Assembly: GCA_951406725.2 (NCBI GenBank)
Contig: OX597820.1
Location: 117,180,001 to 117,244,000 of the forward strand
DNA: 64,000 nucleotides
Direction of reading: 5' to 3'
From: Octopus vulgaris
Lineage: Eukaryota
Notes under the pieces: model-generated
Database searches by the model: none
What the model was told of the DNA's origin: nothing
What the model saw: only the letters and a program-made list of their open reading frames with translations
Translations under genes and position numbers: made by a program
Shown here: piece by piece, positions 4,108 to 59,719 of the stretch
How the letters are laid out: each line of letters starts with the position of its first letter
Position numbering within the stretch: the stretch's first letter is position 1

Positions 4108-4149
4108 ATTGTAGTTAGGCCAAACTCTAGTAACTGTAATGTTGAAACC

Positions 4150-4560
4150 AAGAGGAGTATAATGGAGAGCATCCAGCAAATAGTTAACTCCATCCACCAA
4201 AGTATAAAGCCAACCATAGATTACCCCACTAGGTACCCTAACAAGAGACTCCCTGTCCTTGATACTGAACTTTGGTTAGAGACTGTGAACAACAGAGTGC
4301 AGCTCCTCCATTCCTATTACATGAAACCCGTAACTTCCAAATACGTTGTTCACAAGAACTCAGCTTTGTCACACAACATGAAAATCAACAGACTGATAGC
4401 AGACTTAGGATAATGAACAACGTGCACTCCCCCCCCTCACCACTACCACTATGCGAACCCTATGAAACAATGAAACATGTGTGGAACTTCATGCACCACA
4501 TGCAATTCTCTGGATATGACCAGAAAGACAGGGTTCGGGTAAACAGGGGAGATAGAAAGA
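4150..4560 (+). mobile_element. Penelope-like element (PLE) reverse transcriptase C-terminal/thumb fragment, frameshifted
   Basis: NSIHQSIKPTIDYP..RLPVLDTELW..HSYYMKPVTSKYVVHKNSALS (ORF 4162..4413), continuing in another frame to FMHHMQFSGYD. Typical PLE LPFLD / Y.KP / L..SGY motifs. Confidence 0.8.
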
Positions 4561-4763
4561 AGTTAGAAAGCATTATACGTAATCGAATCCACTTCATGCT
4601 TGAAAGATTCACTACATATATATATGTAGCTACAGGAGGTTATTTAGATGGCCAATCATAGCGTGACCAATGATTTCACATCATTACTGGTCTAATTTTT
4701 AGAATATACTTCTTTTTCAGATATATGATCCACTGATGATGATGATGTTGATGATGATATATA

Positions 4764-11142: not shown

Positions 11143-12915
11143 TAGTATTCTATGTTTGACTTTTACTTTATATTTGTACAAGTTGGCTCCAAGTCTCACC
11201 CAGAGACCTCAAGAGACAACAGGTTGGAAGTTCATGTTGTTGTTATGCCTAGTGTACCATATATTTGGTTTTGTATTTAGTGTTGTACTAGTGAATGTCT
11301 AAAAAAAAAAAAGAAACATACGAAAATTATGTTTGTTTTAAAACTTGAGATTACATAGAAAGTATTTTGTGTAGGATATGAGCAGTTCCCATGAGCACTA
11401 TCTTTTGAATTTCTGCCATTTTGGGGTTTCCTGGTATCTGAGTTAGGTAGCAATCAGCCCCTTTTGCTATCATTCCCAGGGCACCTATGACAACAGGTAT
11501 TGTTTTAGTCTTCAGCTTCCACATTTTGCTGATTTCTATTTCAAGATCTTTATATTTGCTCAGTTTTTGGTAGGTCTTGACAGATACGTTTATATCGATT
11601 GGTACAGTCATATCAATGAGGAGGCATGTTCTTTGTCTGAAGTCTTTCAATATGATGCCTGGCCTATTCACATCTATCTTTCTGTCAGTTTGAAAGGGGA
11701 AGTTCCAGAGGAGTGAGATGTGGTCATTTTCAAGCACTGGAGGTGGATTGTGTTCCCACCAGTTTTTTTCATGGGGCAAATCCAGGCTTTTGCAAATTAC
11801 CCAGTGAATATATTGTGCAGCTCTATCATGCCAGTTGAGATACTCTGTAGGCATAAGAAGACTGCACTTGGAGACAACATGATCAATGGTTTCATTTTGT
11901 TGTTGACATACACATGTTGGGCTACTGCCGTTCTTTAATATGTTGGCCTGGTAGTTCCTTGTTGGTAGGCATTGATCTTGAGCTGCTATGATAAACCCTT
12001 CTGTTTCAGATTTTAAGCCAGAGCCATTAGCCATTGATGGATCAGGGCTTTGTCAACATCTGCATTATTCGCTCTCTTTGGGTATTTGCCATAGAGAGGT
12101 TTTTCTTGCCATTTATCATTCAAAATATCTAAGGCAGCAGTTTTAGCACGGGTTTTCATGCGTTTAGCTTTTTCTGTGCTTGTTTCTTGTATGTCTAATT
12201 CCGAAATTTGTCGTATTCGGAATTCACTTAGATATTCCTTTGCCTGTTTTGTTACTGAGTATGATGCTTTCTTGTTTTCATGTTTTGAGACAAGTTTTTA
12301 ACATCCAGTCCTCAGAGTTTTTCAGGTAGGTGTCTAGGCCAATTGTAGCAATCTTCATTGTTATTGCCAGTTGTAAAAGTCCACGACCTCCCTCTTATCT
12401 TGGCAGATAAAGTCGTTCTATATCTGCCTTAAGGTGGTGCATTCTATGCATTGTCAACAGTTTTCGTATTTTTCTGTCAAGATTACATATTTCAGTAATT
12501 GACCAGTTAACGATATTGAAACTGTAAGTCACGACTGGTATGGCTAAAGCATTGATCGCTTCAATCCTGTTTCTCGCATTCAGCTCTGTCTTGAGTATTG
12601 CTCTTACTCTGCGATAACATTCTTTCCTGATCCTTTCCTTCATCACTGAATGCTTTATTCCATCCCCTTCAATTACCCCTAGGTACTTGTAGCTCTCCGC
12701 TGGGTCTAATTCTTTTATGACATTCTGCTGGTCAAGGTTAACGTTAGATGTTTCTGTCATTTTTCCTTTGATAAAGGTAGCTTTTGCACATTTCTCGAGG
12801 CCAAATTGCATTCTGATGTCATCACTGAATTATTTAACAATCGCTAGTAAGCCCTTGAGTTGTTGGTCATTTTTTTTCAAAGAGCTTTAAATCATCCATG
12901 TAAATGATATGATTT
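11143..12915 (-). mobile_element. R4/Dong-clade RLE non-LTR retrotransposon, 5'-truncated and decayed
   Basis: HIIYMDDLKL and MQFGLEKCAK (RT), IIAAQDQ, CCHC (C.C..ETIDHVVSKC), WHD, RPGI..LLIDMTVP, KLSKYKDL, IPVVIGALG (REL endonuclease). Both ends sit in (TTA)n. Confidence 0.93.
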
Positions 12916-20365: not shown

Positions 20366-21656
20366 CGAGGGACGTTCAATAAGTAATGCCTCTGAGCCAC
20401 TTGCAGTTATTTGATCTAGCTGAAATTTTGCATGTGCAATTATTCATATCTCTATAGATTAAGTGGCAAATTACAGCTCTGAACTAATTGTAGTTTCTGA
20501 TTTACAGGTGTTTGAACTAAGTCAAGTGTGAAATGGAGCCTGTTGAGTGTCGAGCAGTGATCCGGTTTTTGTATTTGAAAGGACGCACACCACGGGAGAC
20601 TTTTGATGAAATGAAAGTAACTTATGGTGATGATGCCCCATCATATGACCTTGTAAAACGCTGGCATCGTGAATTCAAACATGGTCGGAACTCTGTGGAA
20701 ACAGCTCCCAGATCTGGTCGCCCCCTTCTGCTATTGATGAGGCATCTGTCCGTCAAGTTGAGGCTGCCATTTTGGAAGATCGACGCATAACTATTCGCCA
20801 AATAGCCCATGAGATCAAGATTAGTACTGGGTCTGTGGAAACTATCATTCATGACCATTTGCATATGCAAAAGGTGTCTGCTAGATGGATTCCCAGGTTG
20901 CTCACACCTTTCCAGAAGCAAGAACGCGTCGAGTGCTCGAGGATGAATTTGGAGATGTGCCAAGAAGATGAGTCAAAATTTTTCAAAAGACTGATTACAC
21001 AGGATGAAACCTGGGTCTATCACTATGATCCAGAGACCAAAGCCCAATCAATGCAGTGGAAGCACCATGACTCACCTCCTCTAAAGAAGGCAAAGGTGCA
21101 GCCCTCCGCTGGCAAGGTCATGCTCACAGTCTTCTGGGACCAGGATGGAGTAGTGATGACAGATTTCCTGGCAAAGGGTACCACAATTACAGGAGCTTAT
21201 TATGCTTCACTTTTGAGGAAATTAAGAGAAGCTATCAAAATCAAGAGGCAGGGCAAGATCAGCAAAGGCATCCTCCTCCTGTAGGACAATGCTCCGGTCC
21301 ACAACTCGCGTGTCGCCAGATCAGAAGCACAGGCGTGCGGCTATGAACTCCTCCTCCATCCCCCTACTCTCCTGACCTTGCACCCTCTGATTTTCTCCTC
21401 TTTCCAGCCATGAAGTTGTTTTTGAAAGGAAAGCATTTCCCAGATGATGCAGCCTTGATTTCTGAAGTCACGTCGTGGTTGGAGGACTAAGCTGGGGTCT
21501 TCTACAAAAACGGTCTCCAGAGCTGCATCAAATGATGGGAGAAATGTGTACCTCTTGGTGGTTCCTATGTAGAAAAAGACTAATAACTGTGCCAAGTTTC
21601 GTTGCTCTACTGTTATGGGAAGTGGGTCAGGGGCATTACTTATTGAACGCCCCTCG
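20366..21656 (+). mobile_element. Full-length mariner transposon with TIRs and TA target duplication
   Basis: TA-CGAGGGACGTTCAATAAGTAATGCC ... GGCATTACTTATTGAACGCCCCTCG-TA, with TA at 20364-65 and 21657-58. Confidence 0.97.
20533..21583 (+). pseudogene. mariner DD34D transposase, disrupted by one frameshift near 20725 and several stops
   Basis: CRAVIRFL, RSGRP, WIPRLL, ITQDETW, KVMLTVFWD, *DNAPVH, HPPYSPDLAPSDF. Confidence 0.93.
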
Positions 21657-42191: not shown

Positions 42192-42557
42192 TTTAACCAT
42201 TTTGATACCTACCCATTGAGTTCTAGTTCTGATACAAACTTCAAAATTACCTAAATAAAACTTTCCATCAAAGTTTCATGCTAACCTATGCCCCCCAAAC
42301 ACCAGCTTAATAATGACAAAACTTTTTTTACCAAATTCTTCATTATTTCCAATCTTAACTGAAACAAAGGCTGTACATTTCTACAGAAATATGGTAACAA
42401 AAGGATTAAAGTGGACTGAATTAAAACTTTCCATCAAAATTTCATGTGAATTTATACCCCAAACACCAGTTAAATAATAACAGTTATTTTATCAAATTCT
42501 TCATTATTTGTTAATCTTAACTGAAACATGTGCAGTATATCTCTACAGAAGGGTTAA
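42192..42557. mobile_element. TTAA-flanked MITE with a tandem partial duplication
   Basis: TTAACCATTTTG..CAAAAGGATTAA, then a repeat of AAAACTTTCCATCAAA..CTACAGAAGGGTTAA. Related to 19049-19276 in the opposite orientation. Confidence 0.6.
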
Positions 42558-42991
42558 CTCCTTGCCTGGACACTACCTTTGGGTACTTTTAGCAAAGTCC
42601 ACTCTGTTACTAAATTCTGGACTGAGTACAAATTTTTTTCTTTCTTCCCATCTATTTTAGAAACACCTGAAAAGGATCAGGGAACTTTAATTTCTCCTTT
42701 GACCGAGCAATTAAAACCAAAAAAGGGTCGTCTGCCAGGTGTTTATTTAACAACAGATTTTTCTGTTTTTTTTTTTTTGCTAGAATATGAAGAAGATGGA
42801 ACAGGGAAAGATATCAATGACTTAAATTATTTTTAGATGCATAAAGGTATATGAGGAGATGTACTCGTATAGCAAGTGATTTGATCTGAGATCGTGTGCT
42901 GGAACGAAAACAATTGCAGCATGGAAGGTGTTTGTAAGCCATTTAAGAAACACCCAAAAGCCGTTCGATTCACTTCAACATTTAAGTTTAA

Positions 42992-43041
42992 TTTGTCAAA
43001 ATATTTTCGTCGCTAAAATCCGTGACCTGTTCACTGACAAA
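42992..43041 (-). ncRNA. Minimal hammerhead motif with G3-C8 core variant (H3)
   Basis: UUUGUCA-GUGAACA-G-GUCAC-GGAUUUUA-GCGAC-GAA-AAUAUU-U-UGACAAA. Confidence 0.7.
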
Positions 43042-43063
43042 AATCCGAGATGCTGCATGGATT

Positions 43064-43114
43064 TTTGTCAGTGAACAGGTCGCGGTCTTAAAGCGCTGAA
43101 AATATTTTGACAAA
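43064..43114 (+). ncRNA. Minimal hammerhead motif with G3-C8 core variant (H3)
   Basis: UUUGUCA-GUGAACA-G-GUCGC-GGUCUUAAA-GCGCU-GAA-AAUAUU-U-UGACAAA. Confidence 0.68.
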
Positions 43115-43387
43115 TTAAACTTAAATGTTGAAGTGTATCGAACGGTTTTTGTGTGTTTCTTAAATGACTTACAAACACCTTCCACGCTGCAAAGGTATTT
43201 GAGATTTGTAGGAAAGGGTAAATGAGATTCTCTATCATGTGTTCAATTCCGAGGTGAAACACCAAATATTGGTTTCTAACATTGATACAAGACCGTAACT
43301 TGACAGAAGCAGATTTAGTTATGTCAGTCGCAGTTCTTGGCTGGTTCTCTATGTTGTTGACTCTGGAATGGTGAAAGACAGAATTAG

Positions 43388-55159: not shown

Positions 55160-56310
55160 TGTATTTTTTTGTTTTCTTTCTTTACAATCCTGGAATCAAA
55201 CGGACAAGATGGATCAATTAGTGAGCAACATTGCTTTTCCTTGTCTATTATTGCTATCTTTGGTCTGTTATTTTGTAATTTCTTGTGTGTTTCAATAGGG
55301 AATTCCCACAGAATCTTACAATTTTCCAACTCCAGCAGTCATTTGACCCCATGTTCATACCATGGGTCTCCAGCTTCAAATCACCATTTCTAGCAAAGTT
55401 TCCAGTGTAAAACACATCTCTTTCTCTTTCTCCATCTCTCTCTTTCTCTCTCTCTCCATCTCTCTCTCTTTCTCTCTCTCCTTCTCTGTCTCTTTCTCCC
55501 TCTCTTCTTTCTTTCGCCAAATCCATCTCCATCTTTCCAACTCTTTCTCTCTTTCCTACCATCTCTCTCTCTCTTAATCTCTCTCCATCTCTCTCTCTTT
55601 CTCTCTCTCTCCATTTCTCTTTCTCTCTCTCCATCTCTCCAACTTGGTCATGCCTCCATTTCTTATATTCTTCCTGTGCCAATGTGTGGCATTCTCTCAC
55701 AATGTGTGCCACTATCTTGTTCCAAGTTCCACAGATTCTACATTTTTCTGACATATTCTCCCCATGTACATCTTTCCTCAAGTTGTTTGTTTTTATCACT
55801 TGATCCTGGCTGCTACAATTAGCCCCTCTGTTTCTGTTTTTGATTGCCTTTTTTTTTAACCAAGCCCTGGATTTTGTTCTACATACACCTTCAGTGGCTC
55901 TCCAGAATTGACCATAACATGTTCTCTTTGAATTTCATTCTTGTCCTTTTCTCTTATTCCACACTTGGTCACCAGTTCCTTATTCACCATCTTTAATAGT
56001 TTCTTTCTGCTGTTCTATAAATATTCTAGTAAGCGTTACCTTTCCATCTGTGCACACTCTTCTATAACAATTAAGCCTCTTCCACCCTGGTTTCTCTTTA
56101 GGTACTCCCAGTTGATATCAGCTTTCAGATGGTGGGTTCCATGCATTGTCAACAACTTTCTAGTTTTTCTGTCAAGTTCTTGTATGTCGTTTTTTGGTCC
56201 AGTCTATAATTCCAACTCCATACTTGATTAGGAGTATTGCTCTTGCATTTATTGCTTCAATAACATTTTTTGCATTCAGCTTTGACTGCAATTATTTTCT
56301 CACCCTTCTC
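55160..56310 (-). mobile_element. R4/Dong LINE fragment, decayed, with a CT-rich insertion
   Basis: SKLNAKNVIEAINARA, ETEGLIVAA, KCRICG..VAHIVREC..YKKWRHDQVG, KILWEFPIET..NNRPKIAII..LIDPSCPFD. Confidence 0.88.
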
Positions 56311-58339: not shown

Positions 58340-59590
58340 GCATTTGGTCACCCTGCAGGGTTAAATACAAAACCTGCCAAAAGGGCAGATGAACTCTGAA
58401 GAGCCAACGACCATCCAAATAAGCAACTGTTGTTACTATTTATGAGGCTTATTAAGCCCTTACCTGCTTAGGACAGTAGCAATAATGGCAACTCCACTGC
58501 CTCGCAGCAATACCCACTTAAAGGAAAGGCTTTGGGAGTGAATACTGAGGATAAATCAGGGGCTGGAGTCCCTAAGGCAGTTTGATGTTGCAGACAACCT
58601 CATTCTGGCAACTCCTGAAGCACCACTGGTGCCAAGTCGCATTGGCCCCTGCCCTTCCCTTGGATAACACTGGTGGCAGTGAAGAAGGGAGACATATTGC
58701 ATGAGCAACTGCTGATCTCCCATGGAAAACTGCCCAGGCCTGTGCCCTAGAGAGGTCACTCCAGCGCCATCTCACAGTGGCAGCAAAACATGGAAAGCAG
58801 AAGTCCACCAGTTTTAAGCCTGCACATAATTGGCTTAAGAGCAAGGTGCCAGAGGTTGCTTTTAATGGAGGGAGAGGCCATTGTGCCTCACTGGACCACT
58901 ACCATTCGCTTCAAGCTGGGCAGCCCCCAGCCAGTTAGGTGCTGTCCCATCACAGCCCACCTGCTCCCCTGGGAGCGTGAAGCTAAGGGAAACTAACATC
59001 CCAAATCATAAGCTGTAAACATTGCAGCAAAAAATTGAACAAGCAAGCAATGCAGGAAACCAGTATTCAGACATGGATGCTGAACCATAAGGACCATGGC
59101 AACTGGTCAGTCAGAAGTCCTTTGAAAGATCAGCAACACACGCAAATCAGCGACAAAGTGAACATTGCAGCACTCCAGGAAACGAAACACTCAGATTCAG
59201 GGACCCTTCGTGAAAGAGACTATGCATTTTTCTGGCACAGGAGAGGCATAGATGAAGTCAGAGAGCATGGTGTCAGCTGTTCCAGGAAGAACTCTCTGCA
59301 AAAGTTGGTAGAACTCAACTGTGAAAGTTCAGAGCAGATATTCTCACTTCGATTGCACACACCTGTTGTGCCTATCAACCTTATCAGTGATTATGTTCCA
59401 ACCCTATATTCTTCACAAGACATCAAGGATAAGTCCTATGATCAGATTCCTAGGAAAATACAGGTGATCCCAAATGGAGAACAGCTGGTGCTACTTGGTG
59501 ACTGCAACACCAGAGTGGGCCCTGATCATGATTACTGGCCGAGGTGTCTGGGTCAGTACAGGCTTGGTAACATGAACGAAAATGGGCATG
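58340..59590 (+). mobile_element. RTE-clade LINE 5' part: GC-richer 5' UTR and APE endonuclease, 3'-truncated
   Basis: ORF 59035..59601: VNIAALQETK, REHGV, LISDYVPT, LVLLGDCNTRVG, GNMNENG. Confidence 0.88.
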
Positions 59591-59719
59591 GAAACAGGTG
59601 AGGACTGATTAGGAAAAGGGGTCTGGCCATAGAAAATCTGCCTCGACTAATTCTGTCTGAGCCATATAAGCTTGGAAATGTAGACATTAAAATGATGATG
59701 AGAATGATGGGATGATGAC

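Follow-up and report, generated by a model that had tools for sequence, protein, structure and literature searches.

A Penelope-like retrotransposon of Octopus vulgaris whose inverted 3′ ends carry a putative minimal hammerhead with a swapped G3-C8 core pair

A palindrome in a 64,000-nt stretch of the Octopus vulgaris genome (contig OX597820.1, positions 117,180,001 to 117,244,000; hereafter, the window) had been described from the letters alone, at 42913..43192 of the window, as a pair of twin hammerhead ribozymes with GUGAACA in place of the usual core. This raises the question of what kind of element the palindrome belongs to, and whether the double change at core positions 3 and 8 is an accident of this copy or a state kept by selection. 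The palindrome itself is real: its arms, at 42914-43046 and 43059-43192, are 134 nt each and 91% identical. The left boundary given by this sequence-only reading had to be moved, as the element begins 57 nt further left, at 42856, with a tail found on one side only. The full element extends over 42856-43190 and lies inside a 13-bp target-site duplication (TSD; 42843..42855 and 43191..43203) with 1 mismatch, which was the best flanking direct repeat. The left arm (42856..43047, minus strand) belongs to a subfamily with an 8-nt loop II and includes the tail of ~57 nt (42856..42912, minus strand); the right arm (43048..43190, plus strand) has no tail and belongs to a different subfamily, with a 9-nt loop II. 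The arms meet at 43047..43048 (plus strand), where AGATG (43048), preceded by a G, opens the right arm; this is the usual 5′ end of short copies. The palindrome consists of two 3′ ends (pLTRs), inverted and set back to back, that come from a high-copy Penelope-like element (PLE), an origin that the earlier reading had missed.

Each arm contains a minimal type-I hammerhead motif, located at 42992..43041 on the minus strand in the left arm (G3 43034, C8 43029, U17 42999) and at 43064..43114 on the plus strand in the right arm (G3 43071, C8 43076, U17 43107). The parts that had been described could be read in both arms, namely a 7-bp helix I (TTTGTCA/TGACAAA), GTGAACA, one extra purine, which is a G, GAA, the palindromic AATATT and U17. 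Helix II is complete in neither arm (right GTCGC/GCGCT, left GTCAC/GCGAC), owing to private changes at 43096-43097 that damage its base in the right arm and to an A10.4-C11.4 mismatch in the left one. Four public runs, bearing four organism labels, have majority letters other than those of the window at 43023 and at 43096-43097, and no other letters occurred at positions 3 and 8 among the matches listed in those runs. The helix II of GUCGC/GCGAC that had been assembled by combining the arms was nevertheless correct, because the family majority has the full helix; a consensus lacking helix II was thus not found. As a control for chance matches, an intact 202-nt arm was dinucleotide-shuffled and searched on both strands, with 0/20,000 matches to the strict descriptor and 3/20,000 to the relaxed one. 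The description as twin hammerheads did not survive in one respect: the motifs lie on opposite strands and therefore cannot dimerise in cis in the window copy, and a transcript through the palindrome is predicted to fold into a hairpin in which helices I and II have a pairing probability of 0.0.

The element DNA was searched for in the source genome (2.8 Gb), which returned 2,015 first-look candidates, of which 40 were scored. In long copies, the region upstream of the arm consists of a microsatellite-rich 3′ UTR of ~1 kb, preceded by a GIY-YIG endonuclease. Three such copies (L152-L154) carry a reverse transcriptase (RT) and endonuclease frame together with the same G3-C8 arm, ~1 kb past the stop codon; the frame is open over 839 and 1,025 aa in two of them and has one stop in the third. 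Compared with the 3′ end of the ORF-bearing copy L152, the left arm of the window copy shows 94% identity, and the right arm is 90% identical to the L152 arm. The three ORFs contain RT motifs, followed by a C-terminal endonuclease. The endonuclease passed the PF01541 cut-off in 2/2 fragments, and the Atlas neighbours carry RVT_1, HTH_animal and GIY-YIG domains. The full-length ORFs had no Pfam match at E<=0.01 and no PDB match, so the RT call rests on the motifs and the Atlas neighbours.

These features place the family, here called family A, among the PLEs with an endonuclease (EN+): an RT and, C-terminally, a GIY-YIG domain share a single ORF linked to the terminus, and 5′-truncated copies occur that have an inverted copy upstream of them and a tail on one side. 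The linker C-x3-C-x2-C in L152 and L154 conforms to the CX2-5CxxC of Neptune/Nematis PLEs and, being short, looks like the reduced Nematis form; Neptune/Nematis elements are likewise described with an RT, a Cys linker, a GIY-YIG domain, (TA)n targets, and tandem and inverted truncated copies (PMC8557442). In the RT of L152 (1336-3852), with the motifs placed by eye, we also observed that motifs A and B are set apart by a long insertion of ~60 aa, which P0001 and P0004 have as well; canonical PLEs with a C-terminal endonuclease are described as having no insertion-in-fingers domain (PMC8557442). A short ORF in the tail was considered as the start of a PLE ORF and rejected, as 19/19 tail-anchored copies enter unrelated flanks.

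Insertion architecture was assessed in a sample anchored downstream of the core, the first 100 of 7,647 matches, corresponding to 85 insertions: 48 inverted pairs and 37 single arms. Exactly one arm was tailed in 44 of the 48 pairs, neither in 4 and both in none; one locus outside this sample, L011, has tails on both arms. Short arms (n=43) end at positions 140-154 of 202, and exact TSDs of 8-18 bp flank 24/85 insertions. Pairs that mix the loop-II subfamilies, as in the window, made up 1/14 of the classifiable pairs in the unbiased set, and in a biased set of 29 loci resembling the window copy, the tail of mixed pairs was found on either arm (8 and 5). An identical junction was present in 8/100 arms (L274, L277, L310, L312, L313, L316, L335 and L350), and the palindromic unit itself must therefore have been amplified; this junction, shared by the L274-type palindromes, cuts one arm within the core. 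PLE features on record (PMC8557442) include 5′-truncated copies in inverted orientation, a tail on one side only and (TA)n targets, and an in vitro study found the PLE tail to be defined by two RT start sites (PMC11167929), the tail being 30-40 nt in the anole Poseidon element of that study and ~57 nt here. Taken by itself, the palindrome is nothing unusual for PLE insertion. A MITE with long inverted repeats and a chance hammerhead would also be short, high-copy and palindromic, and the recurrence of one fixed-junction palindrome in 8/100 arms is in keeping with it, yet we regard this explanation as refuted and give it practically no chance. Fixed-length TSDs and fixed symmetric ends are not what the copies show: TSDs vary between 8 and 18 bp, 37/85 insertions are single arms, junctions vary and the tail is one-sided; moreover, the arm runs on into the RT/GIY-YIG ORF, and the strict descriptor matched none of the 20,000 shuffles. 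A non-LTR retrozyme, with head-to-tail tandem units and a hammerhead in each, was rejected as well, since single arms and head-to-head pairs dominate.

As the earlier reading had supposed, the swapped core pair is no double accident; it is the state of the family. Genome-wide, 7,111 matches were exactly G3-C8, 422 had another base at position 8 and 29 were changed at both positions. Among the 76/100 arms of the downstream-anchored sample that reach the core, G3 was found in 75/76 and C8 in 75/76, with ~3 of these being junction arms whose match is coincidental, and the other core positions (U4, G5, A6, A9, G12, A13, A14, A15.1, U16.1, H17 and the G10.1-C11.1 pair) were all intact in 55/76. The 29 double-changed matches comprised 8 junction artefacts, and their commonest real class was the double transition A3-T8 (7/21). 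A canonical-core ancestral subfamily within family A was considered and rejected, with only 2 C3-G8 copies recovered (L088 and L090). When the first 100 of the 422 position-8 variants were counted by hand, 34 were G3-G8 and 16 were G3-A8; G3-G8 copies are scattered across subfamilies, and a dedicated sub-lineage was rejected, as 17 such arms had no diagnostic changes in common. Family A thus has G3 and C8 where the literal hammerhead core has C3 and G8, and the motif would escape CUGANGA-based searches, as had been proposed, because published descriptors demand ‘cuganga’.

Further families of the same genome revealed how this pair changes among relatives. Family B (L155-L181), a sister family found by protein search, has C3-G8 in 27/27 loci, frames open over as much as 1,312 aa, ~50% identity over the thumb and endonuclease, and a motif ~550 nt past the ORF. 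Young family B copies have C9 for the conserved A9 in 27/27 loci while keeping long ORFs, which suggests that the core can drift; A9 occurs in 4/14 distinct family B motifs, all from older-looking copies. Two more families came from pattern searches in which some core positions were specified: family C, with C3-G8 in 9/12, and the old family D, with G3-C8 in 18/28 (positions 3, 7, 8 and 9 left free in the pattern). Family E (L128-L151), a young, Neptune-like and more distant PLE of the same architecture with 781-aa open frames in many copies, has U3-A8 in 15/30 GIY-YIG loci. With C3-G8 in the sister families, U3-A8 in family E and G3-C8 in an old relative, the 3-8 pair covaries in nature. Majority sequences downstream of the core are 70% identical between A and D and between B and C, and 52-53% identical between A and B. 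A tree of 52 rows built from this downstream region only separated A+D from B+C at 99/97; it is unrooted, places one long-branch C row on the A+D side, and its bootstrap is incompletely settled. C3-G8 was presumably the ancestral state, judging from its prevalence in Fig. S3 of PMC4209133.

In 24/24 hand-picked aligned rows, positions 3 and 8 form a Watson-Crick pair (G-C in 13, C-G in 9 and U-A in 2), and U4, G5, A6, G12, A13 and A14 are invariant. Helices I and II show two-sided changes across 14 rows, with family D left out, and helix I is only 80% paired; since the rows are related, shuffle controls on them do not amount to probabilities. Families D and A differ at N7, in loop II and in how long helix III is, with helix III palindromic in both. 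At position 17 the majority is U in the G3 families and C in the older B and C copies; the U17 of the G3 families fits a remark, given as ‘data not shown’ in PMC3884650, that G3-C8 works worse with C17.

The window contains several other repeats. Three copies of one of these, with C3 at 13187 (+), 26068 (+) and 10500 (-), carry a canonical CUGAUGA minimal hammerhead with an extra A, a 5-bp helix II and a short helix III. An RT fragment at 4120-4583 has its relatives in families A and B, with 64% at the amino acid level to B, and at 42253-42550 lie two diverged direct copies, spaced by ~162-166 bp, whose pieces are 83-88% identical. Frames at 259-1035, 11354-12052, 20673-21281, 55257-55934 and 58987-59598 are open and resemble, by eye, fragments of non-LTR retrotransposons and of a mariner-type transposase.

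By its position and architecture, the G3-C8 motif belongs with the minimal hammerheads known from PLEs, and its core is, at the level of sequence, a new variant. It shares with the minimal type-I hammerheads of PLEs (Cervera and de la Pena 2014, PMC4209133) a place in a pLTR near the 3′ end, an extra nucleotide at 9/10.1, the G10.1-C11.1 pair, a palindromic helix III and a U17, which is common there; in both cases, copies are mostly truncated, and opposite-strand pairs are reported to lie 100-700 bp apart. The core sets it apart: 56/56 family examples in Fig. S3 of that study have C3 or U3 and none has G3-C8, whereas the core here is GUGANCA, and the extra nucleotide is G here, against a consensus of H with G in 1/56. 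In the active conformation of the hammerhead, positions 3 and 8 are joined in a tertiary pair (PMC3088659). Natural U3-A8 variants (Perreault 2011, PMC3088659; Cercyon PLEs of Schistosoma, PMC4209133) are compensatory at this same pair, as is family E; U3-A8, however, is reached by two transitions and keeps a pyrimidine at 3 and a purine at 8, whereas G3-C8 requires two transversions and inverts the pair. A close precedent is the C3G/G8C construct of the anole Poseidon PLE (Frangieh 2024, PMC11167929), which concerns the same pair in the same class of element, gave partial rescue in vitro and comes from a system with two RT starts. That change was engineered, as was a further G3-C8 rescue (PMC8495972); the G3-C8 described here is natural and fixed in >7,000 copies, in a motif ~1 kb past the ORF. 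In the literature covered, natural covariation at the 3-8 pair is reported as U3-A8, and G3-C8 appears there only as an engineered change. Natural G3-C8 was not found in the literature searched, the scope of which excluded Lunse 2017 and Przybilski and Hammann 2007, nor in the supplement of Perreault 2011, where even ‘cugauga’ occurs in one file only and the alignments are probably unsearchable. Priority for a natural G3-C8 is uncertain because Lunse 2017, a large survey of PLE hammerhead variants, lay outside the search.

Structure prediction separates a solo arm from the palindrome. In a solo intact arm, the predicted mean pair probability is 0.83 for helix I and 0.998 for helix II. Helix III, the palindromic AAUAUU, would form here only through a dimer, and the predicted energies favour this only slightly, at -27.2 kcal/mol for the hammerhead dimer versus -26.6 kcal/mol for two monomers; the dimer is not the cofold minimum, which lies at -31.3 kcal/mol. 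In the predicted minimum-energy fold, G3 forms a wobble pair with U17. The window element as a whole has a predicted fold of -209 kcal/mol, and no activity is predicted for the window copy, given that the two motifs in it are mutually antisense and damaged in helix II. Any activity would come from solo or tandem transcripts of master elements, because the two motifs of a palindrome are never sense on one RNA. Only 1/100 arms begins at the predicted cut site, and this one sits at a microhomology junction; genomic copies therefore derive almost entirely from RNA uncut at the site. Rfam gave no hammerhead match for the window locus among 150 of 202 rows, a result that is uninformative on the swap because canonical-core sisters were missed too. 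Contigs of presumed-RNA runs cover the arm and cannot show strand, ends or cleavage, and a depth step near the cut site was rejected as a cleavage signal because it is confounded by loop-length differences. The G3-C8 motif is probably functional in master elements, and the window copy is probably inert.

The 5′ ends of the copies may mark an RNA start. Of 100 arms, 42 start no more than a few bases away from AGATG, which lies ~58 nt upstream of the predicted cut. Across all fetched loci, a G precedes AGATG in 26/43 short copies that start there, and a pyrimidine does so in long copies; 9 of these 26 copies are junctions and may owe the G to the other arm. RTs can copy the cap. A splice acceptor at AG|ATG was considered, given a branch-point-like sequence and a pyrimidine tract upstream, and is probably not the explanation, as the short copies have no upstream-exon match in L152. 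An internal promoter may be proposed to yield a capped short RNA, probably starting at AGATG, a short way upstream of the motif, which RNA would be copied uncut by the RT/GIY-YIG protein of the element. Synthesis of cDNA would begin from two 3′ start points ~57 nt apart, and joining of the two cDNAs at their 5′ ends would leave a palindrome with one tail inside a TSD, the palindrome thus being a by-product of insertion.

The account that we favour, and hold to be probably correct, combines these observations: the locus would be a head-to-head insertion of two PLE 3′ ends, derived from short RNAs copied uncut and cDNAs joined, and carrying a minimal hammerhead whose 3-8 pair flipped from C-G to G-C with a single origin under selection on the fold. 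The flip likely has a single origin, in an ancestor shared by two related families, and was likely retained through selection for a self-cleaving fold that acts slowly, with the help of a dimer or of protein, in master elements; in other words, selection likely kept the active hammerhead fold. The main competitor accepts the PLE origin and supposes that the motif no longer cuts, the 3-8 pair being retained for the fold of a protein-binding or RNA-pairing element. Copying from uncut RNA and the A9C of young family B agree with it, as do reports that hammerhead mutants leave insertion in vitro unchanged and that anole RNA has no ends at the cut site (PMC11167929), and that PLE minimal hammerheads cleave poorly (PMC4209133). 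We nonetheless judge it somewhat unlikely, since what has been swapped and kept is the tertiary pair of the active conformation (PMC3088659), and the catalytic U4, G5, A6, G12, A13 and A14 are invariant in the 24 hand-picked rows. It is very unlikely that the double change was neutral, fixed by chance in the dead ribozyme of one master lineage and then amplified: a single origin on the tree would suffice for this, and G3-G8 copies are common and scattered over subfamilies, but families A and D both have G3-C8 at 70% downstream identity with N7 and loop II changed, and comparison with family B (52% downstream identity, found by a motif-free search) shows the other core bases to be the same except for the A9 of young B copies.

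Starting from the favoured account, we tentatively raise a further idea, which we think quite unlikely to be right: the minimal hammerhead might serve as an RNA dimerisation module, in which the palindromic helix III joins two short capped RNAs on a dimeric PLE protein, and from each of two 3′ sites, located on opposite strands of the target, the protein would start one cDNA. If true, this would explain the single tail in 44/48 pairs as well as the mixed-subfamily arms with the tail on either one, and the series of G3-C8, C3-G8 and U3-A8 would reflect selection on the active fold for insertion geometry. Irrespective of this idea, ‘cuganga’ descriptors undercount PLE hammerheads, and claims of a hammerhead-free PLE clade rest on such descriptors (PMC8557442). 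The occurrence of G3-C8, C3-G8 and U3-A8 in one genome offers a natural series for asking whether PLE hammerheads must cleave.
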